From an uncultured virus (IMG/VR IMGVR_UViG_3300001525_000359) (Duplodnaviria; Heunggongvirae; Uroviricota; Caudoviricetes): 64,000 bases of DNA. Location: the IMG/VR virus record IMGVR_UViG_3300001525_000359, one strand, 5' to 3'. The translations under genes were made by a program, and so were the position numbers. Each line of letters starts with the position of its first letter. The stretch's first letter is position 1. The notes beneath the pieces were generated by a model that was not told the origin of the DNA, ran no database searches, and worked only from the letters and a program-made list of their open reading frames with translations. Below, piece after piece: positions 2,122 through 45,733 of this stretch.

Positions 2122-2446
2122 ATGAAAGCTGATGTCAAACACGGAAACTGGCTTCTTAGGTCAAATCATCATGTAAGGCATTTCGTTGACATGAAATGGG
2201 TGCCTGTGCCTACAACTGAAATAGTAGGGCTTGTCAATGCTATGGGTGACGGTGAAGACTCTCAATATATCTTTGAGAGCTGGTGTGCATGCACTGCAAC
2301 ATGCATAATCTGACATGAATGCGTTCTGGTGGCTAAGGTCATGCCATAAGATGCATGTAGATCTTGCTGGATCGGTCTTCTTTGAGAAGTTTCAGATTAG
2401 CGTAATAGAGACTAAGCTTGACATAGTTGCAACTACAATGATATGA
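2122..2446 (+). CDS. two WxLRS mini-genes (2122-2313, 2315-2446)
   Basis: NWLLRS...TATCII* and FWWLRS...ATTMI*. Confidence 0.75.
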
Positions 2447-5275: not shown

Positions 5276-5714
5276 ATGGGAATTACGAAAGAGAACGCAA
5301 AGGATTTCATTGGCAAGTGGTGCTTGCATGATGAGAACAGGACTGGACATTACACCAAGCTTTTTTGTCAACGACATCAAGGAAGTGAAGACTGACTATG
5401 ATCTTGATAGCGAAAAGAGCTTGATGATCGAATACAGCTATGACAAGAAGAGATGGCAATATGCAGATCTCACTTTGTTCGGCCATGGCGACTTCATTGT
5501 CAGCCCATTCAAAGAGATTAAGTCAGACGAAAATGAAAAATCCGAATCTGGTGATGACATGAAGGATGATCGTCATGCATCATCATGGTTCTGGAAGAGT
5601 GTGTCTAGCTGTGAGAATGATTAGCATGACTGGATCGAGACAGATCTCATGTGCTATCCATCAAAGAAAGCACAAATATGCAAGAGATGCGGCGTAATGA
5701 AGTATGACAGTTGA
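5276..5714 (+). CDS. hypothetical protein with C-terminal C/H zinc-binding motif; apparent frameshift at T6 (5361-5366) and one read-through TAG
   Basis: ATG at 5276 after GGAG and a promoter; removing one T joins it to ORF 5310-5624; reading through TAG gives SCENDQHDW...CKRCG to TGA 5714. Confidence 0.5.
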
Positions 5715-6032
5715 ATATGCAGACTATGCTTTAAGGACATCTGTTGAAAGTGATGATGGCACAGATGATCTTGTCTTATATGTAGAATGTGATGATGAAT
5801 GGCTTTCATTCGATGAAGAGTATAGTGACACTGAGTTTGACATCTCAGTTGTATGTGAGCTATGACATCATTTGAGTGGACATTAGCCATTGAGTGGTGG
5901 CTAAGAAGTGCATCAAAGAAGTATAAATGGTGTGCAGTTGAAATCGGTGATAGTGCATTCACTGGAATAGAGTTTGAAGAGAACTCTACATATGTTGAGC
6001 TGGACATTAGTCCGTCATGCATCATTGGGTGA
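5704..6032 (+). CDS. two WxLRS mini-genes (5704-5865, 5862-6032)
   Basis: YALRT...ISVVCEL* and EWWLRS...ISPSCIIG*; ATGA overlap. Confidence 0.7.
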
Positions 6033-9850: not shown

Positions 9851-9968
9851 TCATGCAAATTCCAGTGATTTGGAAGATGTCCAAATGTCATGATGAATGA
9901 TATGATTTGAAGTGTAAAGCAAATCAACAGATAACAAACACAAAAAACACAGAAAAGGAACACAACAC

Positions 9969-10517
9969 ATGCAGTTCTACTACATTCGCAAGGAAGATGC
10001 CAAGCAGATCTCTGAGCTGTGCCATTCGTGTGAGAACGCGGATGTGCTGGAGCTTGAGCTCACGATGGCCCACAAGAACAACAAGATGGAGCTTGACGAG
10101 ATCAAGAAGATCTGCGAGATTGGCGACCGCATTCTCGTGAACTTCGATGGCAAGTACATTCCGTGGATCATCGTGGCGAAGCGTGATGACGGAAATCTCA
10201 TCATTAACTCGGAAGACTGCCTTGAGTCGCGGCGTTTCGACAAGTCGACGAACAAGTGGAAGGATTCAGAGATCCGCCACTACTTGAACAGCAAGGAGTT
10301 CAAGGCGCGATTCGACAAGGAGTTTCTCAAGTGTGTGAAGACAGCTGATGTACATACCGAGGACTATGTCACCAAGGATGACTTCTGGCTTCTCTCTCAC
10401 GAGGAAGTGAACTGCCCGGATGACCGCAAGTCCTGGTTCAAGCCGAACAAGGGCGCCGTCCGTTTCCCGTACTTCACGGACAATGCTTCGCGAATCAAAA
10501 AGATCTACGAAGACTAA
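9969..10517 (+). CDS. DUF6273-like protein lacking its C-terminal WWLRS module
   Basis: IGDRI...PWIIV...NKWKDSEIRHYLN...F...DDFWLLSHEEV...FPYFTDNASRIK then TAA; own promoter, RBS and terminator. Confidence 0.75.
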   Translation: MQFYYIRKEDAKQISELCHSCENADVLELELTMAHKNNKMELDEIKKICEIGDRILVNFDGKYIPWIIVAKRDDGNLIINSEDCLESRRFDKSTNKWKDSEIRHYLNSKEFKARFDKEFLKCVKTADVHTEDYVTKDDFWLLSHEEVNCPDDRKSWFKPNKGAVRFPYFTDNASRIKKIYED

Positions 10518-10574
10518 ACAATCTACCATCACTTTGCATTGCCATGAAGGCATCTGCGAAGTCAGCAATAAACG

Positions 10575-10607
10575 TGGCTAGGTGAAATACCCTAGCCATT
10601 TTTCTTT
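10575..10607 (+). terminator. intrinsic terminator
   Basis: tggctagg...cctagcca followed by a T-tract. Confidence 0.85.
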
Positions 10608-10624
10608 CACAGCATATACAATAT

Positions 10625-11570
10625 ATGACTGACTCATTCCAGTATAGCCTGAGAAGCTTATACACATATGAGATAGACTACTATGTGGTATGCACTAGGC
10701 TTGGCCCGCTGTTTGTAGAAAACTTCCAGTTCTTAAGTGGAGATGTTTCAGTATGCATGATATGAGAAAGCAAATCCATTACATCTTACGCGACAAGCAA
10801 GACGTGCAATGCAACGAGTATGCTGTTGTGCATGCAGATGAAAGGGGTGACATCTACATTCTTGACATGTTTGTCAGGTACAAAAGCATCTGTGGAGTGA
10901 ATGTCTCATGCAAAATCTGACAACTGGAAACGGTGCATACTGGATGTCACGAAGCGCATGTAAGCGACTGATCGGCAGTGCGAATGAAAAGTCATATGCA
11001 ATTGCAATGATCACACACGCTGGCAAAAGGACACATGTATGTGTGAATGACTGGCAAGAAAATGTGTTTCGCATAGCTCTAACTTGCTTGATATGACATG
11101 AATGACATCTGGACATGCACGTGGCAATTGCGCGACCGGAACATGCGCGCAGGGTGTGCTAAAAAATCCAACTTATAATGTGTCAGTGTTTGGAGATTTC
11201 TTTTCAGACAATGTGCATCATATTGAACATATCACACTATGCTGCATGATATGATGAATAATGCTGTCAACACAATGTATCGAATGCGTTCTCACTATGA
11301 CAAAAGAATGTTTCTGTCAGAGTATTTGTCATGTATAGGCTCATTGGGTGTTGTTGGCTTAACGCCTAACGTCGGCACGCTCAACATCATTGCATTTGCA
11401 TGCATCATCTGATGAAGACACTTCAACACAAGATCTGGCAGCTTCGCTCGACATCTGCAGATGAGTCCGATCAGATGAACTTCATGTCATACATAAGCTT
11501 CTATGGTGTCGTGAACTACTCGACATTCGCAAGACATGCTAGCAGTGTCGTAGCTGCATGCGTCATCTGA
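10625..11570 (+). CDS. six tandem WxLRS mini-genes (one frameshifted)
   Basis: YSLRS..VCMI*, YILRD..SCKI*, WMSRS..TCLI*, WQLRD..CCMI*, YRMRS..ACII*, WQLRS..ACVI*. Confidence 0.75.
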
Positions 11571-13712: not shown

Positions 13713-13889
13713 ATGAATGTCAGAAGCAGTAGTTTGGTGTTGCGTTCTGCATGCCCTTCTATGAAGGACTTGTATGAGCAGCGACGTTTCTGGAATGCCG
13801 GCATTGCGTTTGTCATGACTGGACGTGGATGCCTGACTACAAACTTCATATTCAACGTGTATGACATAACGTTGTCATGCGTAGTTTGA
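13713..13889 (+). CDS. WxLRS mini-gene with own promoter
   Basis: LVLRS...ITLSCVV*. Confidence 0.65.
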   Translation: MNVRSSSLVLRSACPSMKDLYEQRRFWNAGIAFVMTGRGCLTTNFIFNVYDITLSCVV

Positions 13890-16014: not shown

Positions 16015-16263
16015 ATGAATGTCCAGAATATTTATGACAAGATCAGGCTTACTGTGCTGGTAAGTGTCTTGCTAGTGCTGACATGCATTGCAATGCCGTT
16101 CATGCTTGTGTGGTATGCTTGCATGATCATTGGCTTTCCTGTTGTCTGCATTTTTGCAATGTTTGACTACAGCAATGTCGAGGATTTTGCAGATATGCTG
16201 TGGCGAGTGTATGTCAAGCCGTGGCATGATCTTGTAAGTGTCTTCAAAGATGTATTCTATTGA
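16015..16263 (+). CDS. small membrane protein
   Basis: Two hydrophobic helices; similar layout to 23287-23595. Confidence 0.55.
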   Translation: MNVQNIYDKIRLTVLVSVLLVLTCIAMPFMLVWYACMIIGFPVVCIFAMFDYSNVEDFADMLWRVYVKPWHDLVSVFKDVFY

Positions 16264-16266
16264 GCT

Positions 16267-17171: not shown

Positions 17172-17261
17172 ACATGTGAATGCTGATGAGCGCAAGATGT
17201 CCAGACTGAATTCGGTTTGATATGATTTAAACATCAACCAAACCAAAAAAGGATTAAGTCT

Positions 17262-17933: not shown

Positions 17934-18015
17934 GATCTCTAGACAATTGCTAGGTGTCCAAGCTTCTAGACAATTGATATGATTTAGCCATCAACCAAAC
18001 TAAAAAGGATTAAAA

Positions 18016-18696
18016 ATGGCATCAAAACTGGTGTGCATCAAGAGAACTGGCATGCATACAGCACAGTTCTTCACGACAGCACGAAAGCTGTTCAACATCT
18101 CTAAGACATACCAGGGATTTGAGCTTCATCGTGACGGGCTTGGCGAGACATGCATGTACAAGTATGCTTATGTGAAAGATGAGACAATTGACGAGTCAAT
18201 GCATGACTTGCAGAACAGGTATATGGAACATATTGCGAAAGCTCTTAAGCTGCAATTCAAGTTCGAGCCTTGGGATGACAGCCCATTTCCACAGTATCAT
18301 TTCTCACAAGTTGACACAACCGGATTTCGCAAGTCGGCTGAAGCCATCGCCATCGATGACGTGCCGTATCCACCTGTAGTGACAGTAGAGCTTAGGAAAG
18401 CAATGCTGGTATATGATGTGCTGTTTGGCAAAGTCAATGATGCTGAATATGACGGTGATTTCCTTGCTAAGATGCGAGGTGAAGCTAAGATGGGAGCAGC
18501 ACTTGCAAAAGCACGACTCATTGCGCAAGAGAAGAAGCGGCTTGAGCTTGTTAAAGAGCAGAAGTATGCCGAAATCGATGCTTGGTATGCCAGTGAAGTC
18601 AAGAAGCTAGATGACATCAGGCGAGAGAAGAGGCATGGCATCTGCAAGAAGTTCAACACTCAGATTGACGATGCTAGAAAAATGCTCAATGTCTGA
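18016..18696 (+). CDS. paralog family C, member 3
   Basis: YDVLFG...WYASEVKKL. Confidence 0.7.
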   Translation: MASKLVCIKRTGMHTAQFFTTARKLFNISKTYQGFELHRDGLGETCMYKYAYVKDETIDESMHDLQNRYMEHIAKALKLQFKFEPWDDSPFPQYHFSQVDTTGFRKSAEAIAIDDVPYPPVVTVELRKAMLVYDVLFGKVNDAEYDGDFLAKMRGEAKMGAALAKARLIAQEKKRLELVKEQKYAEIDAWYASEVKKLDDIRREKRHGICKKFNTQIDDARKMLNV

Positions 18697-18788
18697 GCAT
18701 ATGCCAGGCATTCGCAAGATGTCCAAAGTGATTGAAGAATGATATAATTTAATCATGAAGCAAATCAACCAAAAGGGAGTGAAAGAAT

Positions 18789-20393
18789 ATGCGTAAAGTC
18801 GTAAAGAATGCGAAGGACGTTTCTGAAGAGAAGCTCAAGGAACTCAAGGAGAACGCTTTCGGGATTCTATGTGAAGCAAGACGAGAGCTGCTGGTGTCTG
18901 AGCCGTTCATTGGCTCGATTGCCATGAATCTCGACATTGTCCCGGTACGTGACATCCGGCTGCCTACTGCGGCTACCGATGGCGGCAAGATCTACTTTGA
19001 CATTGATTTCCTCTCTTCTCTCAACCGAGCGGACACGGTGTTTGTGCTGGCGCATGAAGTGTGGCATTGTGCGATGTCTCACTTCATTCGCAATGAAGGG
19101 CGTGATCATGAGCTCTTCAACATTGCAACTGACATGGAAGTCAACCAGATTCTTGAGACCGATGGAATGACAGTGCCTGAGAACTGCTTGATGCCTGCGC
19201 TCTACGGCTTCAAGAATGGCCTTTCTGCTGAGGAATACTATGAGCTTCTCTTGAAGAAAAAGCCGAACAAAGGCAAGAAGAGCAAAATCAAAGGCCAAGG
19301 CAAGCAGCAGAAGGGTGGTAGTGGTAGTGGAGATACCAATGAAGACACCGATGGTGAAGGTGAAGGCGGCCAGCCCAACAAAAACAAGAAGGGCAAAGGC
19401 AACGGCAACAGCTCTTCTGGTAGTGATGGCGATGAAGAAGACAATGATTCGCCGATGGGCAAATCTGGCAATGGCGAAGGCAAGCTTGATGGCCAGTTTG
19501 ACAAGCACATCACCGATCTTGACGATCCTGAACAGGAAGCTGGCAACAACAGGAAATCTGGAAAGAGCAAGAAGGGCACGGGCAAAAACAAGTGCGATGG
19601 CGATGAAGATGGTGAAGGCGAAGGTGAAGGTGAAGACGGAAATGTCGTAGCCGACAAGTATGGCAAGCTTGGAAAGGACAAAGACTTCCACCCTCGGCCT
19701 TCTAAGGAGCAGATCGACAAGATGCGCGAGATGGCTGTCGCTGCAGCCCAGCAGTATGAGCGCGACCGCGGATTCTTGCCTGCTAGCATGAAGCGGTTTG
19801 TGAACGAGCTGCTGACACCTAAAGTGGACTGGCGTGAAGTTCTTCACTCGTTCGTGACTCGTGCTATGGGTGAGAAATCCGACTGGAACCGCCCGAATCG
19901 CCGGTTCATCTCGTCTCACACTTACCTGCCTTCGCATTATGGCGACAAGCTGAAAGTGTGCGTTGGCATTGACACGTCTGGCTCGACTATGGGTGACATC
20001 CCCCGGTTCCTTGGCGAACTTAATGGCCTAGTGAAGTCGTTTGGCAGCTACGAGCTGACCCTAATTGAATGCGACGCCGAAGTCGGCAAATGCGAGAAGT
20101 ATGACGATGAGAATCCGCTTGATCTTGAGAACCTGCACTATGAGATGTCTGGTGGTGGTGGCACGTGCCTCAAGCCTATCTTTGACAAGATCAAAGAAGA
20201 GAATGTCGAGTGCGACTGCATCTGCATCTTCACTGATGGGTACACCGAGCATTTCACCAAGGATGACGACCCCGGAATCCCCACTCTCTGGATGCTCACT
20301 CATGGGTGCATGGACAACAAGCAGAACTATGACTTTGGCGAGTGCTGCGAGTTTGAAGAGGCTAAGCCTTCTTTTGATGACGATGGCGAATAA
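18789..20393 (+). CDS. DUF2201-type putative metallopeptidase plus VWA domain (MoxR partner)
   Basis: PTAATDG, VLAHEVWH, NIATD..VN, Gly/acidic linker, MIDAS IDTSGST, GGGGT, IFTDGY. Confidence 0.9.
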   Translation: MRKVVKNAKDVSEEKLKELKENAFGILCEARRELLVSEPFIGSIAMNLDIVPVRDIRLPTAATDGGKIYFDIDFLSSLNRADTVFVLAHEVWHCAMSHFIRNEGRDHELFNIATDMEVNQILETDGMTVPENCLMPALYGFKNGLSAEEYYELLLKKKPNKGKKSKIKGQGKQQKGGSGSGDTNEDTDGEGEGGQPNKNKKGKGNGNSSSGSDGDEEDNDSPMGKSGNGEGKLDGQFDKHITDLDDPEQEAGNNRKSGKSKKGTGKNKCDGDEDGEGEGEGEDGNVVADKYGKLGKDKDFHPRPSKEQIDKMREMAVAAAQQYERDRGFLPASMKRFVNELLTPKVDWREVLHSFVTRAMGEKSDWNRPNRRFISSHTYLPSHYGDKLKVCVGIDTSGSTMGDIPRFLGELNGLVKSFGSYELTLIECDAEVGKCEKYDDENPLDLENLHYEMSGGGGTCLKPIFDKIKEENVECDCICIFTDGYTEHFTKDDDPGIPTLWMLTHGCMDNKQNYDFGECCEFEEAKPSFDDDGE

Positions 20394-20498
20394 GCAGCCT
20401 TAAGGAAATGCTGCTGGATGCGAAAGCGTCCAGCTGCTTCCTTCTCTTTCTAGACAATTGCTATACATATCTCCTCTTAATGAGATAGCCTAAGAAAA

Positions 20499-23591: not shown

Positions 23592-26159
23592 ATGATGAGC
23601 ATCCCATTAGACAGCTATGAGAGCATTGCCGACGCAGTGATCAGCATCAAGGCACATGATGAAGTGAAGCAACAGCTTGCTGAACATGAGCAAGTGTTCA
23701 CTGATGCTGTCAAGCTGATCTTTCCTGAGATTCTTCATGTCAGCAATGTCATGTGGAACTATACTGGATTCTTGTCTTACTATGCTAGGAACATCAGTGT
23801 CTGGACGCCTGCATCTGAGACACCCGTCTTGTCATTTTGCCCAAAGCATGACTTGAATGGCTACTCGAAGTTCACTTCTCAAGCTAGAGCTAAGCTTGCT
23901 GGCATTGCATGTGCATTGCATGAGCTGTTCTCGACAAGGAAACTCTATGCAGACATGCATATTGAAGATCGCTGTCCAGCTAAGCGAGCACTTTTAGGAG
24001 TGAAGCTTGACAACTCTGTCAGGAAAGCAAAGCACATTGCATTCTCATTCAACACAGACTTGAAGAGCTTGCCTGAGATGAAGGCTGCTCTCGAAGAGAT
24101 CAAGCTCAGCAAAAAAGATGTCGAGTCATGAAAGGCAAGCTTTTCCCAAGACTAGATGCTAGCGATGCTGAGATCACTGAGCAAGTCAAAAGCATGACTG
24201 ATGATGAAGCGACTAAGCTTCATAGCAACTTGCTTGTTGTCCTGAATGAAATCTGCAACTCTGTCTTGCCAGCTGCCATCAAATGGCAGACATGCAAATT
24301 CAAGTTCGGGTTTCATGAGAACAAGACACCTAGAGGCACTATCACATCTTGCTTCTCTATGTACATGACTGACACCGACTATCCAGACAGTGCACCTGCA
24401 ACAATTCTAGATGTTGACACGATCGAAGTCACATTCAAAGACGGGATAACGACAAATGATCGCCGGCATGAGTTCAAGACAGTTGTGAAAGCTCAGGACT
24501 ATGTCATGCTTGCTGCGTTGAAGCATCTGTTCATGACATGCAAAGGCTTCTATGTGACTAGGCAGATTCCAGTCAAGTCTACTGGAAGCACATTCTTTGA
24601 AAGCAGCATGAAGCATGAAGACACTAGCATATGCAAAGTCGAGAAAGATGCATATGCAAGTGTCCAAGCTAAAGTAGATCTTGCAGAATGCAGCACAATT
24701 GAAGAGCTTATGCTTAAGCTAGCAATTTCAACTTACACATAATCTACAAAAAAATGACAGAAGACACTATCATCATAGAGTTTGGCCAGCAAATTGAAGA
24801 CATTGCTTATCGCATCACACTTCTTAGCGACGATGAGATCAAAGACAACTTGAAAGAGTACACCAACATCATGAAAGCTTTCTGCAAGAAAGTGATGCCA
24901 AAGCTGTTTGGTGCAGGCAAGTACAAGATGGATGTCACTGACAACGGGTATGACGGTGCTATCATCAGCTTCACATGTGACACAGCTCATCCAGACAAGT
25001 TCGCCAACACCGAGAATGTCATTAGCATTGAGCAGCACTGCCCTGAGAACATGACTGAACTCAAGCAACGCCAGCTCTTCGCTCTTGTCTGCATGTTCAA
25101 GAGCATGTTCACTGAAGCTAGCAAAGATGAAGATCATCGCATGCCGTTCAACAACCACTGGACACTTGATGTCTCATCCGCAGAGATGATTCATAAGCAG
25201 CCAAAGATCCAGGGCTTCAATGGATGCACTCTGATGACTGAGAGTGTGATCAGCCAAGTAGTCAATTGCCCGGACTTGAAGACATTAGATGATGTCAAGA
25301 AGCATTTTGGCATTAAGCATAAAGTGAAGAAAGAGCAAGCACCAGCAGTTGACATGAAAGAAGCTGCAGAAGCGCAGCTAGACGCATTGAAAAAGCGCAT
25401 CAAAGCATCACAGAAGAAGATAAAGACGAAGACAAGTAGATCTACAAAGAAGAGCAAAGCAGTTAGCAAGAAGCATGTCAAGAAAGCAGCAGCGGCTGCT
25501 ACTAATAAGAAAGCACGCAACACTAAGAAGAAAGCTGCATGATGTCAGGCAACATAAGTGTCTTGAAAGGCTTAGACATTCCAAGCTTTGCAAAGCCTTT
25601 TCATGAGTATGAAGAAGCCGTTGTGAAGCTGGAGGCAGAAGCTCTTCATGCTCAGCACCGGTTCATGTCGGCTCTTCTAGACTTCATGTGCAAGCATGTC
25701 TTCCTAAGAGCATTTGACTTAGATGAAGTTTCTTATGCCTGCAAGCATGAGTACATCTGCAACAAAGATGACATCATCTCATTGCAGCTTAGCATTGTCC
25801 ATCCAGACAAGTTTGAGTCAGTTTTCTATGTCGATGTGCTCAACACTAGCTTCTTCATAGGCAAGAACAAGCTAGACAAGAGCTTGCCAGGCACAATGTT
25901 GAGAGCAGAGCTTGTCGCGATGCTGAATTGCATGCACACAATGTTCTCTGGAATATATGAAGTCAACTTGAAGCTTGCAACTGAGATCATCCAGCATGAG
26001 CATGAAGAAGCAGCTGGATTCACATATGAAGTTGAAGAAGAGCGGACTAAGGTGCTGAATGCTACTTTGCCATGCTTCCAGACTGTAGAAGAGCTTCTAG
26101 CAAGCTTCATGATATCTGGACTTGACTTTGCTAGTTTTCTAGAGAGCTATGTATCATAA
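23592..26159 (+). CDS. paralog family B, four tandem members (23592, 24128, 24754, 25539)
   Basis: Shared C..llP, (A)xL...l..lF and terminal T[IVL][ED][ED]L motifs. Confidence 0.7.
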
Positions 26160-29100
26160 CACGCCATGGCTATCAAGATCATGCATAAGGCAAGATAGGT
26201 TTAGCACCCAATGCTGTGTTATCTATGCAAGCAGTGAGATCAATGCTTTCTTTGTCTACAAAAACTACTATGGAATCACATTTGCTTGCATTGTATGAGA
26301 TATGAAGAAAGCTGGTTTCTCAGGTCAATGCCAGATGCATTTGATGTCATAGCAAATGCGCCAGTCTCGAGCATTGACATGAATGGCGATGCAATAGTAT
26401 GCTTGCATGTCTTTGACATGCCACATGGCATTTGTGTAGTCTGCATCATATGAGCATACGACAGTATCTTCCGCCCAGGCATTGCATTGAAAGCTATGTC
26501 CTGAGAACTGCTTCTAGAGTAGAGATGGACATGGGCAGGATGTGGATGGTGAGCACCGCTGCAGAAGTAGATGAAGTTGGCGACTTGACAAATGGAGTCA
26601 TTCTCTATGATCTTGCTTATGCGTGTGCATGTGTCATCTGAAGTGTCCAAAGCTATTTCAGTTTGATACAATTTGCATGCAATGATGGCAAAGAAGACAT
26701 CATGGAGCTTAAGGTCAGAGCATAATGCTGTGTATGAGGTGTACACCGGCAACATAATTGCTAGCATATATGTCACAGGTGAAGTAGACTGCTTTGGCAT
26801 TGACTTTCCACGGTGCTTCTCTGGAGCTTGCATGATATGAGAACTGGACACGAATGCTTTTTCTACATGTTAAGGTCATGCTCATGCTACTTGTCTAGTG
26901 ACAGCATTTGCGTCTACATGTCTATTATGGAAAAAGACAACTTCAAGAACTTCATTTGCGCAAATGACTTCTATGGGACTTCTGTCTCAACTGTTGTATG
27001 AGACGTATTGAGAGAAGCTGGTTTCTTAGGTCCGTTATGGACGGCACAACATATGGTGTTGGTGCAGTGTTCAAAGACAGTCATGTCATCGACTATTTCG
27101 ATGCAGAAGCCAGCATAGTGGGCATGACATTAGCAACAATTGTATGATGAAGACAGTCATGATGTTACGGTCACGGCATAGATGCGATGACAATGCTGGT
27201 GCAGTGTCTTCATTTGGGACATTGTCATACATGCATCATAATGATGCATATCTAGATGTTGCAATTTTATGCATGATATGATTGTCAGCATATCGCAGTA
27301 TTGGCTTAGGTCATGTCAAGGAGCAGCAGCAAATACATTGATGTCACCGGCATCTTCAAACTCTAGTCACATCAGCGAGCTTGCATGTGCAGTGCTTTCA
27401 TCTGGAAATGTTGACATGTTCTACTGCTGGCTTAGGCGTGCAGCATGGGTGAATGCAGCATGCATCATATGAAGTGCACTAGCATAGCTGTCAAGAACTG
27501 GCTTAGGTCAGCAAATGCAGGCACTATAGAAGCAACTGCATCTATGTATGCAGCTAATGTGTATGTAGATGGCCAAGTCGAGATAAGACATAGATACGTC
27601 AATATTGGATGTTCACCGGTATGCATAGTGTGAACAGTCATGACAATGCGTATGTCAGCTACATTGGCGTCACTGGCCATTATGACAGCATCAGCAGCCA
27701 GTCTTTCTTTAGCATGTCTTGCATGATATGATCTCAAAATGGTGTCTTCTAAGGTCCTGCTCTAGAGTTGATTTCCATTATGTAGCTTCAGTTGAGCATG
27801 ATGCTGTTCTAGACTGGAATGTGCGCAACTGCAGCAATGTCACATTGTCATGCATTGTCTAAGAGATCTAAGATGTCCAAAGTCATTTAAAAATGATATG
27901 ATATCTAGTCATGCAGAACGTCACATGGTGGCTTAGGTCTATTCCAGTTTCAGATGGCAAAGAAAGCAAGCTGTTCCACAAGAGTGAAGTCAAGTTGTAT
28001 GCAGGCGCCGCTGGAGTCAATGCATATCTAGATCCATTCATTGGATATGCTCGCATCACTAGAGATGTCATATGCTCATCGCCTGCATGCATGATCTAAG
28101 CAGATTTCGCTATGTCGACTTGCGTCTTAGAACGACAATGGCATCATCAATGCACAAATACGTCATACTGTGCTAAAGACATCATGAGCATTTTCCCATT
28201 CTTCATGCTGAGGTCGATTTCAGTTAGAATGCATATGCTGGACAGAGTTTCATACATCAGTTCTACTGGAAATGTCGACGGGTTCTCAATTCATGACAGC
28301 ACAGTGTTCATGCTGTCATGTGCATGCTTGATATGATGCTTGCATGGCAGCTTATGCCAGGTTTTCTATGATGTCCAAGATCATACACAAATGATACAAT
28401 CTTATTATGAGCACAACAAGATGGTGGTTCAGGTCGGCTGACAATGAAGACACTCACATGTTGACATCACGACTTAGATTTGCTGCAGTGTTCAACTTCA
28501 CTGACTACAGTGTCATGAGAGTGATATATGATGATGTGAATGTCTTGCCAGCAGCAGTCATATGAGCAGCAACAGCAAATTGCCTGTCAAAATGTGGACA
28601 TTGCGGTCATTTCATGCTAGCAATGCTAACACTGGACATTATGTGTTCCTTAGCTGCGCTCATGATGACGGGCAAACTGGTGGAGCAGTCCTGCCATGCA
28701 ATGCAGGCGTCATTGTTGCCGCCGAGATCTGAGATATGCAACTTCAAGAGAAATAGTTATGAGCTTCAGCAAAGCTGTAAGACATTTCTTCAGGTCAGCG
28801 GCTAATGACAGCTTTTCGTCTAGCTATGCGCCAGTCTATGCATGTGCAGGTGATCTTGACGGCAAATGCTTTTTCTATGACATCTTGACAAGACAGCATG
28901 TCGGTGCATGCTGCATGATTTGACACATGAAGACTACTGTCCAATGGTGGCTAAGAACTGCTGAATATGACTCAGACTACAGCCCAGGACATGTCTTCAC
29001 AACTGCAATTAGCTTCTTGGGTGAATATGACACAAAGCTAGTGCTTGACGTGTTCACTCAGATTTCGCCAGCGGCACTCATATGAACAGCTCAAGATGGC

Positions 29101-32100
29101 TTCTCAGGTCTAAGACATATGAAGACAGCAAAGCATATGATCGTGTCTTGTATGCTGTCCAGTGTGATGGCTTCATCCCTCAAATCTGGTTAGACATCTT
29201 CAGAGAAAGGCAAATATGTCCAGCAGCAGTGATATGAAGCACAATGTCAGGTGGATGCTCAGGTGCAAGTACACGGAGTATTCGCATCCAAAGCAATGCA
29301 TGATCGTGCATAAGACAGGCTGGACTGACATCAATGACGTTGACATGAATATGTCATATGTTTGCGCAACATGCATGATCTAATGAAGACAGACGAAACA
29401 TCATACTGGCTTAGGTCTATTCCAGACATTGCGGTCTTGACTGCATTTTCGCCTAACGTTGACACAGATCACATAGATGAGAATGTAGCAGCGATTCTCA
29501 TTTCAGGGCAGCCCGACTGCTTCTATGTCTGGCTAAAGCACTCTTTGAAAGCAAGCATGACATGCATGATATGATGGTGCAAAGATTCCCATACTGGACG
29601 TGACTTAGATCGGTTAGCATTGACGTCAGGCAAATATGCACAAGAAATGTGTCATGCTCAACTGTTGGCAAGCTTGATGCATGCTGCACATATGCAAGCA
29701 TGCACTATGAACATATATGTCGTGCTTTTGCAGTTTCATGTGAAATCTAAGATGTCCAGGCTTCTGGACATTTGATATGATTTGACTGTCATGATGAAGA
29801 GAACTGGACATATGCTTAGAAGCATCTTCAAAGCTGACTCACTAGACACAGCTAACAGCATGGGCTATATCTGGCATAATGGAAGCTTCACTATGGTTGG
29901 TGTAGAAGTGCCAGTGAACATTGCATATGTGTGCGTAATCTGAAGAAATCGTCATGAAAATGGCAGACTGGCATCTCAGGTCAGCGCATGAGCGCGACAG
30001 AAGCTTCAATGCGCAAGTTCTCTACACAGGCGTTCTAGGCACAGAGTTCATCCATTACTACATGTCACATGTTTTGCCAGCATGCATCATCTAGTATAAA
30101 GCAAGATGTCCAAGTTTTTAGACAAATGATATTATCTAGACATGATGAAGCAAATGAACTTCTGGCTTAGGTCTTCAAGACATGATCGCAAAAGCAATCC
30201 ATTCAACATCAAGACATGGACTTATGCAGGCACCACTGGCATAAACAGATGTCTAGATCCGTTTATTGGAGTTGAGCCTGTCTATGAGATGCAAGCTTCT
30301 TTGCCAGTATGCATGATCTAAGCAAGCATCTCTACACAAGTCATCTTTGCTTTATGCATGTGCATTCAATTCTACAGAGTAGAGCGTTATGAGAAAATCA
30401 ACTAAGCTTTCATCAGCAGCATTCACATGATGTTTTTAAACACAACAAAAGACTGGACTTTCAGGTCATACACCATTCCAGAATCTAAGAGAAAAGCTGG
30501 CAAGACTATGCGATATACGCGTGTTGCTTTTGCTGGTTTCAATGGAAACATAGGTGCATTATACAATACGTCGTCACAGTCATTTGGCTATGACTGCGGC
30601 ATTGCATTAGCAGCAGTCATATGAGAATGATACATTACTTCTGCAGGTCAGCACGAACTGATGAGATCGTGATGTATGCAAATGAATATAACTGCATGGT
30701 CACATCTTTTGGCGAAGTTCTTCATGCTATGATCTGGTCGAAAGTGATAGCATTTTCAGCATCATGCATTGTCTAAAAGCAACGGTTTTCCTCAGGTCAT
30801 CTCAATCTAATGGCTGGAATGATCCTGCTGACAGCATCACTACAGTCGTAGGCATAGACATGCATGGCGATGTCTTGCTTTATCGTGGACATTATGTGCA
30901 TGAGATAAGCATTGGAGCAATGATATGATGAACGCCACAGTCTGGCTTAGGTCAAGACATTCAAGCTTCATGACAGGCTCTATCTTGCAAGATGGCGCTG
31001 TCTATATCAGCATGGTAAGTCATGACACAGATCTGCTAAGCATTTCATGTGTAATTGCCTGAAAAATAAAATGAATCCAAGCTTCTAGACAAATGATATG
31101 ATCTAGACATGAAGGCAAAATGGATCATCTCTAGCTTCATGCTAAGGACAAAGGACACTTATATCAAGGAAAATGTAGTTGCAGTGAGTGGAAATGGCAT
31201 TGATTTCATTTCAAACAGGCCTTACTGGACATTCGATGCAACTGTGCCGGCATGCATAGTGTAAACAAGTCATATCTTCTAAGGACAGTCACAAGCGCAT
31301 TCAAAGCAAATGCGACTTTTGCAACAGAAGCGTGCTTGCATAGGCCAGATTTCAGCTATTGTCACATTGAATATTTAGCGGGGATTTCAGGAGCATGCAT
31401 GATCTGAATAACATAGCAACTTACTGGCTTAGGTCAACGACAACAGCATCTAAGCGGACAAGCATGTCTAAGCTAGATCATGCAGTTGTCTATTTTCATC
31501 CTTTCAAGCAGATGCTAGAATTCAGCTTTTGCTATGACAACAACAAAATGGAGATGTCATTTGCATGCATGATCTAGCATTAAGCAAGATGTCCAAAGCT
31601 TTAGACAAATGATATCATTTAGACATGAGCATTGCAAGATGGTGGCTTAGGTCAAGTGACAATGAAAAAGCATACTCGTACAAGTCAAGCATGCTCTACA
31701 TTGCTGTCTTCAACTCCACAGAGTGGAGCGTTATGGGTGTGATGAGCACAACAACAAAGCTTTGCCCAGCTGTCATGATATGAAAGACGAATATGCAAGC
31801 TACTACTGCAGGTCAGTAAGAGACGATGATCTTGCTAGCATGCCAGATGACTTTGTCTGCATGATAAGCTCAAGCGGCGAGGCACTTCATTGCATGAATC
31901 AGTCAGCATCATTTGACATGAGCATCTCTTGCATTGTCTAGAGAAAACATGAACTCAGCATACTCATGGCTGCTTAGGACATGTGGGTGTGCATCAGCCG
32001 GTGACACAGCGTTTGCACTCAATGCCAGCATCAGCATCTGGAAAGGCAACGCAGATCTAGACATGAGCTTGCTAGCATCGGCGATATCAGCAACATGCAT

Positions 32101-35100
32101 GATATGACTTTTCAACAAGAAGCAGAAAGCAGCTTTTTTATGCCAGTTGACATCACAAAACACCGCTTGCATAAGCACTTGCAGCATGAGCTAAGCATAG
32201 CAGCAATGACATGCATTGTCTAAGATGTCCAGAAATCTAACTTTTTGATATAATCCTAAACATGATGAGAGAAGCAACAGCACAGTGCTTGCTGAGATCG
32301 ATGGTTGTTGGACATGCCAAGAATGCCGTCATGAACATCAATTACGGTCATGTGACATGGAGCTTCTCAACTGTCAAGCTTTTAGCAATTTCAGGAACAT
32401 GCATGATATGAAAGAATCAGACAGGATCAAGACAAGCTGGCATCTCAGGTCTAGAAGTGAAAGCTGCATTGCATGTGTCTCATCTGCAAGCTTCATTGTC
32501 TATGACAACGTAGACATGTACAGCAACATCGCGCCTGCATTCATGATATGACAGATCATTATCCATATAACTGGTACTTGAGATCATCGCATGCAGACGC
32601 ATTCTTCTTCTCTCATGCAATGCAACTTGATGAAGCTGGCGTAGTAGATACCATCTTTGTAGAGACACTTTTCGGGATCTCGACTTCATGCATGATCTAG
32701 TCATTAAAGCAAGCAGAAAAATGTACGTAATATATAGGCTAAGGTCCGTCTTTATGAGATCTGCTGCGCATATGCTCAGGACAGGAGTTGTCTATGCTTA
32801 TGGAAATGTAGATGGCTTTATTATAATTGTACATGACGAAGACTTCTGCTTCACCGTCACTACAGTTGTCTAAAAAAGAAAGCATGAAAGCCATCTACTT
32901 TCTCAGGTGCAGGTTGATGTATGTCTCACAGTTCTTGTATGCAGGGCAGAAGCTTGTCATCATCTGCAAGAGCATCACACTCATAGACGGTACAGGCAAT
33001 GACTGCATGCTTGCATCTGACGAGCTTGGCATCTCTGGAGCTTGCATGATATGAAAAAGGACACTTACTGGTATTTGAGAAGCAATGCTGGCTATTTCAC
33101 TTGCAATAACCAGAGAGTTGCGCTTTCCGGCGTCTACGACGGCATTTATAATTCAGAAGTGAAATTTGAGTACTGGATCTTGGGGACATGCATGATATGA
33201 CAAGAATGATCGAGACAAGCTGGTTTCTAAGAAGTGATGCTAAAGCTATCATCATACATGATAGCTTCAGTGACTACATAAAAGAAGTTGCAATAATAAG
33301 TGCTTTAGCGAACAAGGGTGCCACACAAGCACGATTTGATCAAGGGATTTCAGGAACATGCATGATATGAAAGTACTTAAGAAGACATGCTGGCATTTGC
33401 GGTCAATGTCAAGCGACAGCTTCTACACAGCATACATTGCAATTTCACCAAATGAAATGACAACAACGAAGCTCTGGTGGATTGCGAATGGCTGCAGCAT
33501 GACATGCATGATCTGAACTTCAAGTGAAAACGGGAAAAATGAGATACACGACATTCTTTTGCTGGTCTTTGCGAGACATGCACATGTCAACATCTAAGAT
33601 CTATGAGAATGACATCAAAGTCATTGACTACAACGGCTATGCGTGGAACACAGGTGTCATAACAGAAAATGACATCTGCATGACATGCATTGTCTAAAGA
33701 AAAAGCAAGACATATGAGCAATCACTGGCAGTTTGGAGAAGTTTTCCTCAGGACATCTTGCATAAGATGTCAAGCATCATTCATGGCATGGAACTTCTTC
33801 ACCAGAGAGCTTGTGTTTGATCCAATTCCACCTGACTTCACATATGACATCTCGCCAGCATGCATTGTCTAGAAGATCTTAATATGTCCAAGATCATAGA
33901 CTTTTGATATAATGCAGTCATGAAGAAGATGCTGATCACATGGTTGAGACTGAGAAGTGCATCTGGACGCACTTCTTATGGAGGCAAAGCATGTGTTGGC
34001 GTCATGCTTGATGATGGCCAGCTGTCATATCATGTGTCAAGATCATCCGTCATAGCTTTGCCAGCATTATGCATGATCTGACAAGCAACAGAAAACATGA
34101 AAAGCAAGACTCATAGCATATCGGGACGGCTTCTCAGGACTGCTGACATCTGCATGAAGCAGAACATCGTTGCAGTCGACAGCTCAGGTGGCTTCTTGTC
34201 AAACAGGCCTTACTGGACATTCGATGCAGCTTTGCCTGTCTGTGTCTTCTAAAGAAGTCATGATATGCTGTGTAGACAGCCGGTGTTCTGTGGTCAATGC
34301 TTCAATGGGAAGAAGTGCTTTTAAGCATGAACGATGCAATGTCATGAAGTGCCGGCTGAAGTAATCTCTGTCTCGACATGCTGTATGATATGAGATGCCA
34401 GTGCACATATGCTTTGAGGACGCTTTCTGCAGCTGAAAGCTTGACTTGCATGACTTTTGCAATCAGCGTTTTCGGGAAGTCGTATTTCGGGATGATGGTG
34501 CCTGAGAAGACTGGCATCTCAACAGCATGCATTATCTAAGAGCATGATGAAGATCTTCTGCATACCGGCTGTCTGGTGGCTCAGGGCAGAGAATGCTGGC
34601 GTCATTGACATGGCAGTTGCACGCAAATACGCAAGCGATGTCTACTTCAATGGCGCAGTCGAGATCCGAGACAAGCATCTCTACTCAGTGCATGTCTCGC
34701 CAGTATGCTGCATTTGAGATGCTAGCATTAAGCAAGATGTCCAAAGCAAAGATGAAATGATATGATTTAGACATGAACAACTACAGCAAGCCTCTGCCTG
34801 AAGGCGGATATCAGCTGAGGACAGCATATGAAAGCACGACAATGAAAGCATATGATGTCAGGCCAGTCTTGCCAGCATGCTGTGGCGGATGGCGAGAAGC
34901 ACGAGCAACCGACTTCTCAGAAGTGCCAGTCATCATGTGCAGTGTCATCTGGTGCTCAAGATGGACATCTGCATTGACTTGCTTGCCTCCGGGGATGACT
35001 AGCAGCAAAGATCGTGTCAAAGCTGCGATAACATGCATCATCTGATGAGCACCGAGACATCTTACTTCTTGCGGACAAGGACAGCTGGCATCGATGACTG

Positions 35101-36984
35101 CATTGGTTTCATTTCGACTGATGGCTTTGCGTTCAGGATCGCACTCGCATACAAAGGCTCAGCCATGCTTGTCTGCTGCATTGTCTAATGAAAAAAGCAT
35201 CTATCTACATGGCGTTTGTGGTCATTCTGTCTTGACACAGCATATGCAGCATCATGCATCTTCATTTCAGGCAAGCTTGACATGATCATGGTCCCTCGAA
35301 ATGCAAGCTTGCTTGTCTCAGCAGTTGTCTAGAAGATCTGAAGATGTCCAAGATCATAGACTTTTGATATGTTTTAGACATGAGAGCAGACACGAAGATT
35401 GATATGCACATTCTTTGCAGCTTCAGTGAGCTGCATGATCTGGCCAGCATATGAAGAAGAAGCGCGACACAAAGTGGTCTCTGAGAAGCAACGGAGGCAG
35501 AGCAAGATTAGTCATCATTTATTATAATGAAGCTGGAGACATCTGTGAAGACGGAGATGTCTATCGTCTTGCAGTTGACTTCAAGTGTGGCATTTCATGA
35601 ACATGCATGCTATGACAAGCAAGAAAGAGTTCTGGCTCAGGTCTAAAGTGACTGAGAGCAGTCATGCTAGATGCACTGGAGCTGTCAACTGCTTCGGGAG
35701 CAATGACATGCTTCTTCATGACATCTGCTTTGTCGCGATCTCACTGTCATGCATGATCTGATGAAAGACGCCGCCCTTAATGAAATGCAAGCATAATGCT
35801 GGCAAAAACGAAGTTATCCAGATGTCTGGAAGAATGATAAGGTCTTAGACATGAAGAGAGCAAGAGCAAAGGCAGCGTTCGTGCTGCTGCGGTCAACTGA
35901 GTTGACTCGTATAGGAGAAAGTGCTGCTTGGAAGTCAACTGCAGACATCTTTGCAGATGGGGACTTAAGCACGACACTTGTGCATGTCTGGAACAGCTTT
36001 GCACCCGTCTGCAAGATATGAACAGCTTATGAATGGCTCTGTTGTCAATGATGATGTCACATGGATCTTGCGGTCTGTCTCAAAAGACAAGGCTGACACT
36101 GATGTCTGCGCGTATGTCTTGCAGTACAACGTGCACAATGAATGCATCTTCATGAATGTCAGGGACACGTTCTTTGCAAACTGCTCATGCATGATCTGAC
36201 ATGACAGATAGCATCAGCAGCACAAAAAGCATCTTCTTGCGGTCTGCAAGCTCGTGGAGAGCTGTGACTGTGAATTTCACTGGTGTAGTGAATTCAAAGG
36301 GTGCTGTCCATCATGTAGACACAGATTTCACACTTGGGATCTCTGGATGCTGCATGATCTGAGAAATGCTGGCGGTCATGAAGATGTCCAGATGCATTTG
36401 CTTTTGATAAAGTCTTAGATATGAAGAGTGGAGCAGCATACAGCTTGAGGTCGGTGGACAGCAGAGCGCATGATGACATTGGAATTGTCGCTTATGACGG
36501 TGACTTCCAGGTCAGCAAGCTCTATTTCCTCTGGACAAGCAATGTCTTGCTGGGAGCAATGATATGATGAAGAGCAGCAAAGAGCAGCAGAGCGGCAAAG
36601 CTATCATGTGGAGCATGCGGTCTTTGCCTTCAAGTGGCTTCTGTTGCGTATGCATCTCTCGATCTGAGAGCTTGCCGACATACTTCAGCGCATGGAGCTA
36701 TGCTGGGTGCTGCATGACTTGCATGATCTGAAGACTGGCATTCTTGAAGGTGTCCAGATGTCTAGAGATTTGATATGATTTTAAGCATGATGACAGCAGA
36801 TGGCAGAGAAGATGAAGCGTGCTTGGCGTACTGGATGCTGAGGTCGCCTGTTGAGAGAGATGCAAGCTTGCATTTCACTCGTGAGCAGGTGAAGACATGC
36901 TACTGTGCATGTGACTTCGGCGGGTACGTGTATGCAGAGCTTCTGGATGCTAAGTGTGATGTCCTTGTTGCATGTGCTGTCTGA
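26149..36984 (+). repeat. tandem array of about 60 WxLRS...ACxI mini-genes with 14 internal promoters
   Basis: Period about 150-190 nt; recurring DNA ctNaggtc and (gca)tgcatgat[ac]tga; ATGA/TGATG stop-start overlaps; units translated by hand. Confidence 0.9.
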
Positions 36985-37008: not shown

Positions 37009-37581
37009 ATGATTGACGGGATTCCAGTTGGGTCGCTAGAGAAGATTGCAGAGCATGTCAGCATCTTGCCAGAGAAGACGGCTTTGGCAGAGAAAGAAGT
37101 CGTGTCAGGTGTCATTGACTTCGTCTTCAGGCAGTTCTTGCCGAAGAAGCTGCATCTCATGCCTGGCATCAGGTTCAGAGCATTTGCATCTGGCGAGCGC
37201 GACAAAGTCAAAGATGACTTCAGTGTCAGGACTATCTACAAGATCAGCTACGGTGTCTGGGTAGTCAATGAGATGTCAGGAAACAGTGAATGTCTTGGCA
37301 GAGTTGTTGACGGCTTCAAGACGGCTCGGTTCGTGACAAGTGATGTGCATGCAGAGCTTCTCGCTAACATTGTGATCTTGCATGAGATCTTCTGCGGCAG
37401 CAAACGACATGTCAATGCAGATGATGACTGCATCAAGTGGCAAGATGGTGTCTTGACAGTCAAGTCAAGAGACGTGAGCTTCATTTTCCCGAAGTTCGAG
37501 ACTGTGGAAGAGATTGTGGCTTCTTTCACTTGTGCTGGATATGACATGAAGATTGACTTCTCGGAGCTTGAGAAGCAATGA
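37009..37581 (+). CDS. paralog family B member
   Basis: HAELLANIVILHEIFCG...FETVEEIVASF..AGYD, closest to 25539. Confidence 0.7.
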   Translation: MIDGIPVGSLEKIAEHVSILPEKTALAEKEVVSGVIDFVFRQFLPKKLHLMPGIRFRAFASGERDKVKDDFSVRTIYKISYGVWVVNEMSGNSECLGRVVDGFKTARFVTSDVHAELLANIVILHEIFCGSKRHVNADDDCIKWQDGVLTVKSRDVSFIFPKFETVEEIVASFTCAGYDMKIDFSELEKQ

Positions 37582-37784
37582 GAAATGAGATAGATGTGAC
37601 AATGCACGACGATGAGTTCACATGTGCTTTCTGGAGCTTGAGGTCTTCGGGAGAAGATGCTAGAATCCCGACTTTGCGAGTTGATGATCTTCGGGAGACA
37701 GTTGCTGTCTTAGACATTGAGGGGTACCCATTTGCTGATGTCATTGGCTTTGAGGCTGACATATGTGCTGCATGTCTTATCTAG
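37578..37784 (+). CDS. WxLRS mini-gene
   Basis: FWSLRS...ICAACLI*. Confidence 0.75.
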   Translation: MRNEIDVTMHDDEFTCAFWSLRSSGEDARIPTLRVDDLRETVAVLDIEGYPFADVIGFEADICAACLI

Positions 37785-37819
37785 CAAAAGCATGACACCA
37801 CCCTTAAGGTTTCTTCAAA

Positions 37820-38428
37820 ATGGAGAGAAAGAAGAAGAGCACTATGCCAGATTTCATGAGATTCTCTGAGATTTCGACAGTTGCTGTCAGGAAGCTAAGT
37901 GCAGAAGAAGCTGCATGCCAGCTGTTGTTTTTGCATAGGCTGCTTGGCTTTGTGCTCGAAGCAGTCTTGCCGCATGAGGCTAAGCTAAGCAGCCACCCTG
38001 TCGATGGATCTGCTAGTACGAAGAAGAAGAGCATGAAGAAGAAGCTGGTGTTCAAGTCTAGATGCAGTGCATTCAGGCTGTCAAGCTCTGCTGACTTCAC
38101 CAGCGAGCTGAAAGTGACATGCAGCTTATCTGATGACATCTTGTTCTGGAGAGTCTCATGTGAGCAGTTCATGACTAGAAGTCATGCTGAGTTGTGGCTG
38201 CTGATGTGTGCTCTTGCTTTCCTGTTTGACGGGAGAGAGAAGAAGCTTGAGCTGCGAGAGAGCTTCTGGAAGAGTCTTTTCCGGAATGTCCTGCTTGAGC
38301 TTTTCACATATGACATGTCTGGGCATAAGCGTGAAGACATTGTAGTCTGCTTATGGCAATGCATCTCGGTTGAAGATGTCATTGCAAGCTTGACGTTGCG
38401 TGGCTATGATGTCTCTAGCTTGCTGTGA
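37820..38428 (+). CDS. paralog family B member
   Basis: HAELWLLMCALAFLFDG...SVEDVIASLTLRGYD. Confidence 0.7.
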   Translation: MERKKKSTMPDFMRFSEISTVAVRKLSAEEAACQLLFLHRLLGFVLEAVLPHEAKLSSHPVDGSASTKKKSMKKKLVFKSRCSAFRLSSSADFTSELKVTCSLSDDILFWRVSCEQFMTRSHAELWLLMCALAFLFDGREKKLELRESFWKSLFRNVLLELFTYDMSGHKREDIVVCLWQCISVEDVIASLTLRGYDVSSLL

Positions 38429-45422: not shown

Positions 45423-45733
45423 ATGCATTTGCGTGACTTAAGACATGCACCACATTTGTCTACGTGGACATTCAGGTCCGCTGGAGCACATGGATGGCTT
45501 AAAGAGTTTGCAAATGATGATGTTGTCTACGTCTACATTGGTAATGCATACTGTGACAATGTAGACATATTTCATGGCATAACGGTTAGTTGTGTGATAT
45601 GATGTGTCATTTCTTAACAAGATCAGCATTCAAGACATTTAATGGTGGAGTGATGCTGTTAGTTGCTGGCAAGTATGCAGATGCAGTCGACTCAAATGAT
45701 ATGCATGCAGTGACATGTGCATGTGTCGTGTAA
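45423..45733 (+). CDS. two WxLRS mini-genes (45423-45602, 45599-45733)
   Basis: WTFRS...GITVSCVI* and FLTRS...VTCACVV*. Confidence 0.65.

Follow-up and report, generated by a model that had tools for sequence, protein, structure and literature searches.

A truncated DUF6273 gene and about 70 separate mini-genes for its missing C-terminal module in an uncultured phage: a candidate split lectin

What is encoded in a stretch of phage DNA that a track of open reading frames (ORFs) renders as noise? The DNA examined here (the window) comprises 64,000 nt of an uncultured virus of the Caudoviricetes (IMG/VR IMGVR_UViG_3300001525_000359) and reads as part of a large uncultured phage, with all long ORFs on the plus strand. 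Two of its elements concern us: a family of hypervariable mini-genes, most of them in one tandem array, and a single truncated gene for a DUF6273 protein, which we call the scaffold gene. A previous reading of the window made without database searches (the sequence-only reading) had described a continuous run of short ORFs with shared anchors at 26149–36984 and had overlooked the scaffold gene. The run is real: in the ORF lists, short plus-strand ORFs of one family (40–90 amino acids, aa) tile 26143–36984, and a profile census recovers them. Stretches of ORF noise can thus hold dozens of selected mini-genes, which here occupy 11 kb, or 17% of the window. The mini-genes, or units, lie as follows.

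26143..36984, plus strand: main array of 55–57 tandem mini-genes (ORF lists, profile census, alignment A1, stop contexts)
10625..11570, plus strand: six-unit cluster directly behind the scaffold gene (E 4.7e-7 to 8.7e-12)
10625–10765, 10753–10920, 10908–11096, 11102–11254, 11239–11412 and 11400–11570, plus strand: the units of that cluster (profile census)
2122..2446, plus strand: two mini-genes (2122–2313, 2315–2446) behind a promoter motif at 2087–2115
5704..6032, plus strand: two mini-genes (5704–5865, 5862–6032; profile census)
13713..13889, plus strand: single mini-gene behind a promoter motif at 13673–13701
37578..37784, plus strand: single mini-gene whose start overlaps the stop of ORF 37009–37581
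45423..45602, plus strand: single mini-gene behind ORF 44969–45415

Each unit consists of a WxLRS anchor, a variable stretch of ~25–40 aa and a C-terminal anchor, [SP/G]-[AT]-C-[MIV]-[IV]-stop, in the overall layout M-x(3-15)-[WYF]-x-L-R-[ST] ... hydrophobic strand-G ... [SP/G]-[AT]-C-[MIV]-[IV]-stop. For the census, a hidden Markov model (HMM) was built from units picked by pattern, iterated once and run on the stop-to-stop frames of both strands that reach at least 20 aa (n = 1801). Inside 26143–36984 it found 55 units at E<=1e-3, a number that rises to 57 at E<=0.1, and it placed 13 more elsewhere in the window, all on the plus strand. The coordinates of the array therefore stand, but the family is not confined to them; the total repertoire is about 70, made up of the 57 units of the main array, the 6 immediately downstream of the scaffold gene and 7 at scattered sites. 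Because members of the census trained the HMM, the minus strand and the nonmember frames serve as the control, and among the 1801 frames of both strands the minus strand gave no unit at E<=0.1. The other two plus-strand frames within the unit spans carry 180 and 199 stops per 2,604 codons (~7%), so a succession of open frames of ~46 codons appears far from chance.

The units are strongly diverged from one another (mean column identity 14%; best pair 56% identical), and in alignment A1 only M1 and the Arg of LRS reach conservation of at least 90%. They end in TGA (36), TAA (12) or TAG (5) at the 53 unit ends counted, and at 23 of these 53 the stop overlaps the next start as ATGA—the chaining that the sequence-only reading had proposed. 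The tiling has gaps without units (e.g., 34717–35003 and 35188–35439), and two units, 11102 and 27609, are eroded and lack the LRS motif. A 191-aa antisense ORF (26276–26851, minus strand) crosses the first units of the array; it has neither a family match nor unit-like features and is probably a by-product of a stop-poor antisense frame. An alternative genetic code was considered and rejected: with TGA, TAG or TAA recoded, the units still do not fuse into one long gene, and the remainder of the window is consistent with table 11; no tRNA genes were found.

The scaffold gene, its promoter-like motif and a terminator-like structure lie directly upstream of the six-unit cluster.

9878..9906, plus strand: promoter-like motif of the scaffold gene, TGTCCAAAT-N11-TGATATGAT
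9969..10517, plus strand: scaffold gene (protein P0001, 182 aa; Pfam PF19789, DUF6273)
10574..10608, plus strand: intrinsic-terminator-like hairpin with U-run, 57 nt after the scaffold stop

P0001 matches the Pfam DUF6273 profile (PF19789) with E 1.1e-10 and 42.1 bits (cut-off 23.5), over positions 2–120 of 172, and is built of a ~70-aa N-terminal extension followed by the N-terminal part of a DUF6273/C-type-lectin-like domain. Its C-terminus, ...FTDNASRIKKIYED, falls just before the point at which a WWLRS module would start. Going by profile positions, P0001 is the N-terminal three-quarters of the DUF6273 domain whose tip the units encode. The whole domain is not found on one polypeptide, and its C-terminal module occurs only in separate mini-genes: a resident tip is absent from the DUF6273 gene of the window and from those of two related loci, L001 and L002, each gene being the only one of its kind seen there. 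No read-through of the stop codon was found: no frame continues past it in the window or in L001. The hairpin that follows it has a 9-bp stem (−14.6 kcal/mol, z −4.3), and 0/200 shuffled sequences fold as well.

Some further observations concern the surroundings of this gene and of the array. In the scaffold frame at 10518–10570, beyond two stops, an RHLRS motif stands 16 codons after RIK, a spacing close to that of WWLRS in P0010, an intact relative; it may be a vestige of the original tip, and L001 shows nothing comparable. The ORFs on either side of the array (25539–26159 and 37009–37581) were considered as alternative scaffolds and dismissed, since hhalign shows no relationship to the scaffold (probability 0.5%). 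Weakly paralogous to each other (E 4e-5), they belong to runs of unannotated ORFs of 170–260 aa that flank the array (23592–26159, 37009–38428); ORFs of similar sizes lie upstream of the L001 array (L011/L012).

What signals would drive expression of the units? A promoter-like motif, aAGATGTCCAaag-N11-TGATAtgAT, occurs 26 times on the plus strand of the window and once on the minus strand (20 versus 2 for a stricter version). The array holds 10 copies, with an ATG 4–9 nt after the −10 element, and a repeat search adds four weaker ones at ~31047, 35318, 35799 and 36369. Transcription restarting every 1–10 units, as had been claimed from the sequence alone, agrees with this spacing of one motif every 1–10 units.

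26644..26672, plus strand: array promoter motif 1, ATG 4 nt after the −10 element
27874..27902, plus strand: array promoter motif 2, ATG 8 nt after the −10 element
28372..28400, plus strand: array promoter motif 3 (motif scan)
29753..29781, plus strand: array promoter motif 4 (motif scan)
30107..30135, plus strand: array promoter motif 5 (motif scan and repeat search)
31590..31618, plus strand: array promoter motif 6 (motif scan)
32226..32254, plus strand: array promoter motif 7 (motif scan)
33885..33913, plus strand: array promoter motif 8 (motif scan)
34738..34766, plus strand: array promoter motif 9 (motif scan)
36751..36779, plus strand: array promoter motif 10 (motif scan)

Ordinary genes of the window have the same motif, followed by a leader of 20–60 nt with an AAGGA-type ribosome site. 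From the positions of motifs and start codons, the first cistrons of the array would be nearly leaderless and the later units translationally coupled via their ATGA overlaps. A generic sigma-70 scan (36 sites versus 26 +/- 4.7 expected) was uninformative, unlike the phage-specific motif. The scaffold leader is ~60 nt long and carries a Shine-Dalgarno-like AAAGGAAC; it belongs to a repeat family (D5) in which a conserved leader, GTAAAGCAAATCAA...AAAGGAAC, follows promoters at 6021–6120, 9857–9956, 13885–13984 and 14682–14781. The scaffold gene is thus of the D5 leader class, whereas the mini-gene operons start almost without a leader. Several ordinary genes (35, 3213, 3925, 40177, 43639 and 46603) have a −10-like box a few bases before their ATG, and the same phage encodes an IF3 homolog (56097–56666).

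Is selection acting on the units as peptides? In the 63/65 units that carry the N-terminal anchor motif, Leu, Arg and Ser are each written with all six of their codons: Leu as CTT 13, TTG 13, CTC 11, CTA 7, CTG 6 and TTA 4; Arg as AGG 37, AGA 11, CGG 8, CGT 3, CGC 2 and CGA 2; Ser as TCA 20, TCT 12, TCG 6, AGC 4, AGT 2 and TCC 2. An in-frame ATG precedes the anchor in 57/57 units, mostly by 3–7 codons, versus 36/57 and 28/57 in the control frames of the same stretches. Among paralog pairs of at least 33% identity (n = 349), the proportion of synonymous differences (pS) is saturated at ~0.6–0.95 and that of nonsynonymous differences (pN) is 0.28–0.55, a value biased downward by the choice of alignments on amino acid identity; the best pair, 31109/34097 (56% identical), has pN 0.28 and pS 0.75. 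Because synonymous sites are saturated, the comparison can be stated only as pN < pS. At each codon position the base composition is similar to that of the window's ordinary genes, and the DNA repeat families of at least 40 nt in the window comprise only promoter motifs and three weak unit pairs at 72–81%. By these codon and substitution patterns, selection is on the peptides, not on the DNA, as the sequence-only reading had supposed from conserved anchors around diverged cores.

The same data bear on whether the array might be a decaying, functionless relic (e.g., of tandem duplication or of aberrant retrohoming of the gene's 3' end). We regard this as highly improbable: frames are open despite saturated synonymous sites while the other frames run at ~7% stop codons, the anchors are conserved at the amino acid level, the promoter motifs are intact and arrays have been kept in three diverged phages. 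What speaks for decay is the pair of eroded units, the weak N-terminal anchors of several units in L001 and the unit-free gaps.

How do the units relate to known domains? Singly, only 3/56 match Pfam DUF6273, and below the cut-off (E 0.05–0.13), with matches from profile position 127 on. As a 56-unit profile, they align in hhalign with residues 189–231 of the 235-aa intact P0010 (probability 90%, E 1.5e-6). The unit profile gave 30 matches at E<=1e-3 among 1.84 billion representative proteins. Of 14 long matches scanned with Pfam, 13 carry DUF6273 (E 1e-7 to 1e-92), and in these the units align with the C-terminal end of the domain; only P0037, a repeat protein, departs from this pattern. Fifteen matches are short (52–81 aa), and P0014 (132 aa) consists of two fused modules. 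Nine of the 15 short matches are identical to units of the window, two are orthologs from a close relative with 4/52 and 8/56 residues different (the latter being P0034 against unit 5862–6032), and the other four, like P0014, come from other phages. On profile evidence, then, the units are the C-terminal module of the DUF6273 domain, the similarity that had been predicted from the WWLRS...G.V..A signature. In two reports (PMC10743442; bioRxiv 10.1101/2024.10.15.618418), DUF6273 is described as a C-type-lectin-like domain whose C-terminal end, in gut-phage proteins, holds the variable region of diversity-generating retroelements (DGRs). Among the mini-proteins of other phages, P0014, P0016 and P0022 start ~10 residues earlier (FNSDKSRIK...) and overlap the scaffold's last helix, so the split point seems to differ between lineages.

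How widespread is the truncated scaffold? Eight homologs of P0001 (P0002–P0009; 52–92% identity, 181–189 aa) all stop at the same place, and with L001 and L002 the same truncation is found in 10 close relatives. A ninth homolog, P0010 (49% identical, 235 aa), is intact and continues as ...RFWWLRSACANDCSSVGLVSDGGYISNNFAYNLYGGLSPACSI..., the unit pattern. A search for related loci with the single scaffold protein found 0 in viral contigs, and an alignment query found 1 viral locus and 8 metagenome loci. The viral locus, L001, is an 81.6-kb contig (G001; 44% complete by CheckV) on which the truncated scaffold gene is preceded by an ~8.6-kb array. By a strict pattern that array has at least 21 units, with ATGA overlaps and ends of the form ...[SC]F[TVA][IL], several of them with weak N-terminal anchors; the next 32.9 kb upstream hold one more unit by pattern. 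L002 has a truncated scaffold gene with four units before the contig ends. Several ORFs lie between these four mini-genes and the scaffold gene (L002 2487–4379), and by eye they look like an inserted mobile element, with a serine-recombinase-like and a TnpB-like ORF. Between L001 and L002 the scaffold is 86% identical, with pN 0.094 and pS 0.615, values that indicate purifying selection on the truncated gene.

In more distant relatives (L005–L009, 38–50% identity; MT835491, 33%) the genes are intact, and some of them are tandem paralogs. These are full-length and continue as WWLRS...[LS]P[AV]C.I, with tips rich in Y, S, G, D and N, and in L005–L009 the tip DNA interleaves fixed positions with NNC-type variable codons, which gives it the look of a DGR target. 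Because it is the more distant relatives that are intact, the split gene with its array is the derived state of one clade.

Could the units be donor cassettes—template-like or silent—that are reverse-transcribed or recombined into an intact DUF6273 target elsewhere? They span the very stretch that DGRs rewrite, L005–L009 show the fixed/NNC-variable pattern just described, and in an incomplete genome a target and a reverse transcriptase might lie elsewhere. However, the variable cores are not rich in A or AAC: A makes up 0.30 and 0.30 of codon positions 1 and 2 versus 0.33 and 0.38 in ordinary genes, AAC accounts for 39/2199 codons and Asn for 4.7%. No near-identical pair of at least 40 nt resembling a template and variable repeat (TR/VR) was found in unit bodies within the window, only the three weak pairs at 72–81%. 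There is no match to the reverse transcriptase family RVT_1 among the window's 69 ORFs of 80 aa or more or in the 81.6-kb G001, both partial genomes, and no site-specific recombinase family among the Pfam/PHROG matches of the 69 ORFs of this partial genome. The 3' junction, ~GCATGCATGAT[AC]TGA, is conserved over 12–15 nt and variable at synonymous positions; since the anchors vary synonymously, they seem to provide no DNA homology tracts for exchange. Furthermore, ATG, open frame and stop are all preserved in 57/57 units, and the sole DUF6273 gene seen is without a resident tip and is followed by a terminator. Because the genomes are partial we still allow for donor cassettes, but consider them improbable.

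Would the two halves fit together? The intact P0010 was modelled with a predicted local distance difference test score (pLDDT) of 78 and a predicted template modelling score (pTM) of 0.83. Its top Foldseek match is 9qa6 (E 4.7e-5), and VIA-align superposes it on the DUF6273 N-terminal domain of that structure with Z 13.7 and a root-mean-square deviation of 2.4 Å over 168 residues. According to PMC12402451, 9qa6 is a Thomasclavelia immunoglobulin A (IgA) peptidase whose N-terminal domain is DUF6273. Against C-type-lectin domains the P0010 model scores Z 4–5.6, including TvpA (2y3c, Z 5.2) and Mtd (1yu0, Z 4.1). The model thus gives the family a C-type-lectin-like fold; this applies to P0010, the pair from the window having been modelled only as a complex.

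In that predicted complex, of the scaffold with unit 28927–29082, the interface score ipSAE was 0.94, 0.95 and 0.94 in three runs, versus 0.00 for controls (best of 3); the mark used for this score is reached by 116/157 solved complexes and 2/215 mismatched pairs. Contact agreement between runs was at least 74% and partner pLDDT at least 64. The last six residues of the modelled unit pair with scaffold strands 77–81, 123–124 and 138–142, and the scaffold C-terminus (175–181) adjoins the N-terminus of the mini-protein (1–5), as expected for a domain cut in a loop. Modelled alone, the unit has pLDDT 62 and pTM 0.34 and is worst at its two ends, the anchors (pLDDT 51 and 50).

These observations lead us to a reading that we hold at roughly 55%: the phage would encode a C-type-lectin-like protein in split form, with a germline library of ~70 tips to complete it in trans. 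One gene (9969–10517) would supply the constant N-terminal scaffold, stopping at the loop before the WWLRS strand, and each of ~70 mini-genes would supply one version of the missing C-terminal module. That module would have two conserved anchor strands (WxLRS and ...[SP][AT]C[MI][IV]) around a hypervariable hairpin, the stretch that DGRs appear to mutate in intact relatives. The mini-genes would be transcribed as short operons from 10–14 copies of the phage's own promoter, with a nearly leaderless first cistron and later cistrons coupled by ATGA overlaps. A mini-protein would then complete the scaffold fold in trans, its last strand inserting between scaffold strands 77–81 and 138–142. The predicted outcome is a set of heterodimeric binders with one constant body and ~70 hard-wired tips; such a germline repertoire would replace DGR hypermutation or descend from it.

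What might such binders recognize? Their target could be the host surface or, given the nonstructural neighbourhood, host proteins inside the cell. The Pfam/PHROG matches of the window are nonstructural: DNA methyltransferase pieces, a MoxR-like ATPase, a DUF2201 metallopeptidase/von Willebrand factor A (VWA) protein, an RNA ligase, Thg1, PTH2, IF3, an NAD kinase and a Ste24-like M48 peptidase. We lean toward an intracellular or early role because of this neighbourhood and because the promoters are common to replication- and modification-type genes, though the binders could instead be displayed on the virion.

Several points weigh against a lectin completed in trans. One scaffold gene for ~70 partners poses a stoichiometry problem, and in the window the main array lies 16 kb from the scaffold gene, although the two are adjacent in L001. 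No clear orthologous mini-genes were found between L001 and L002 (best 48%), which could mean that the units turn over quickly or that L002 is incompletely sampled. Both the window and the 81.6-kb relative are partial genomes, and an intact target or a reverse transcriptase could lie elsewhere. Because 9qa6 is a solved DUF6273 structure, the complex score speaks for the compatibility of the halves, not for their assembly, and the model may simply recognize two halves of a known domain, which tend to score well in a test of this kind. One lineage-wide co-variation fits the predicted interface, within limits. At scaffold residue 79 the window has Ile, where L001, L002 and P0004–P0006 have Cys; position −3 of the units, its predicted contact in the complex model, is Cys in 50/63 window units and Phe in 21/21 L001 units, collected with a pattern that allowed only F, V or L there, and in 3/4 L002 units. 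This co-variation is a single evolutionary event.

Alternatively, the mini-proteins could be autonomous small proteins—inhibitors, decoys or toxins—derived from a lectin tip, next to a scaffold with a separate function. Small early phage proteins often act alone. The mini-genes are equipped with promoters and start codons of their own, most are separated from the scaffold gene by 16 kb, and units of other phages appear as separate short public proteins (P0016, P0022, P0032 and P0036). We nevertheless consider autonomy unlikely. In the model the units dock on the scaffold through two core strands, and it is exactly these that are conserved; a lone unit is modelled with low confidence that is worst at its ends, and the residue 79/position −3 co-variation argues for contact. 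All 10 close relatives have a scaffold cut off at the corresponding boundary, and the array adjoins the scaffold gene in L001 and L002. The sequence-only reading had taken the units for small variable binding modules; with a scaffold gene in the same window truncated exactly at the module boundary, and a model that joins the two, they are probably not stand-alone binders.

If the protein is indeed completed in trans, it would represent a third route, beside DGR retrohoming and DNA cassette switching, to many specificities from one protein, with variable tips stored as a germline library and joined to a constant scaffold after translation. It would also be a hard-wired descendant linked to DGR targets, a link suggested by the more distant relatives that still have intact, DGR-like genes, and it would offer a natural split-lectin system for binder engineering. 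We further entertain, tentatively, a more specific possibility: in this clade, protein-level combinatorics with ~70 interchangeable tips may have replaced DGR hypermutation, yielding an antibody-like intracellular panel against variable host proteins (e.g., defence systems) under early-type promoters amid nonstructural genes, with an array perhaps seeded by repeated integration of template-length cDNA.

Other features of the window are less directly connected with the mini-genes. In blastn searches against GenBank phages, 14800–20400 and 26149–34000 had no match, and the DUF2201 protein matches only jumbo and other phages, at ~30% identity. The Ste24-like M48 peptidase (43639–45003) has a 'CAAX prenyl protease' N-terminal membrane domain. 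Intact DUF6273 relatives (L005–L009, P0025, P0028 and P0041) end in CaaX-like tetrapeptides (e.g., C-L-I-N, C-L-I-D, C-I-I-G, C-V-I-C), and most units of the window end two residues after the Cys; the resemblance may be coincidence, since the model places the C-terminal strand in the core of the fold. Thg1 (tRNA-His guanylyltransferase) is apparently split between 51553–52005 and 52006–52419 (PHROG 4717 positions 2–134 and 140–212), which makes it a second split gene in the window. Two ORFs, 1315–2082 and 4651–5220, match different parts of one methyltransferase family (phrog_11371 positions 2–106 and 287–362) and are separated by ~2.5 kb that include the two mini-genes at 2122–2446; they may be one gene interrupted by inserted DNA. 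A 56-nt direct repeat (family D7) occurs three times (58375–58430, 60319–60374 and 60915–60970), 77–91% identical, at or near gene starts.

How does the locus compare with systems already described? Full-text literature searches around DUF6273, WWLRS and DGR/split-lectin arrays found no published description of such an array. The closest kin are the C-type-lectin proteins of DGRs—Mtd of Bordetella phage BPP-1, TvpA of Treponema denticola and the DUF6273 targets of gut phages ('tentaclins'/Mtd-like)—which share the domain family and fold seen here. In the gut-phage reports, DUF6273 targets of DGRs also have their variable stretch at the C-terminal end of the domain. Unlike in a DGR, diversity here is hard-wired in ~70 genes rather than generated from one template by reverse transcription, the domain is split over two polypeptides, and the available sequence has no reverse transcriptase, TR/VR pair or adenine signature.

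A second comparison is with systems in which the C-terminal portion of a binding protein is swapped between cassettes: the R64 shufflon (PilV), the invertible tail-fibre segments of Mu and P1, and the silent cassettes of pilS and vls. These share with the present locus the principle of one constant N-terminal part and many alternative C-terminal parts in a tandem library. They join the parts at the DNA level, using recombinases and conserved sites, and neither promoters nor start codons are present in their silent cassettes. In the present locus, by contrast, an ATG and a stop are found in every unit, the promoter motif recurs, the units all have the same orientation, synonymous variation runs through the anchors and the scaffold gene has no resident tip.

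A third is with the prochlorosin lanthipeptide precursors, dozens of short paralogs with conserved and hypervariable parts that serve as enzyme substrates and have a conserved leader. The likeness lies in conserved docking segments combined with a hypervariable core, in many short paralogs serving one partner protein. Whereas prochlorosins are conserved in a leader, both ends of the units described here are conserved, as structural strands of a lectin-like fold.

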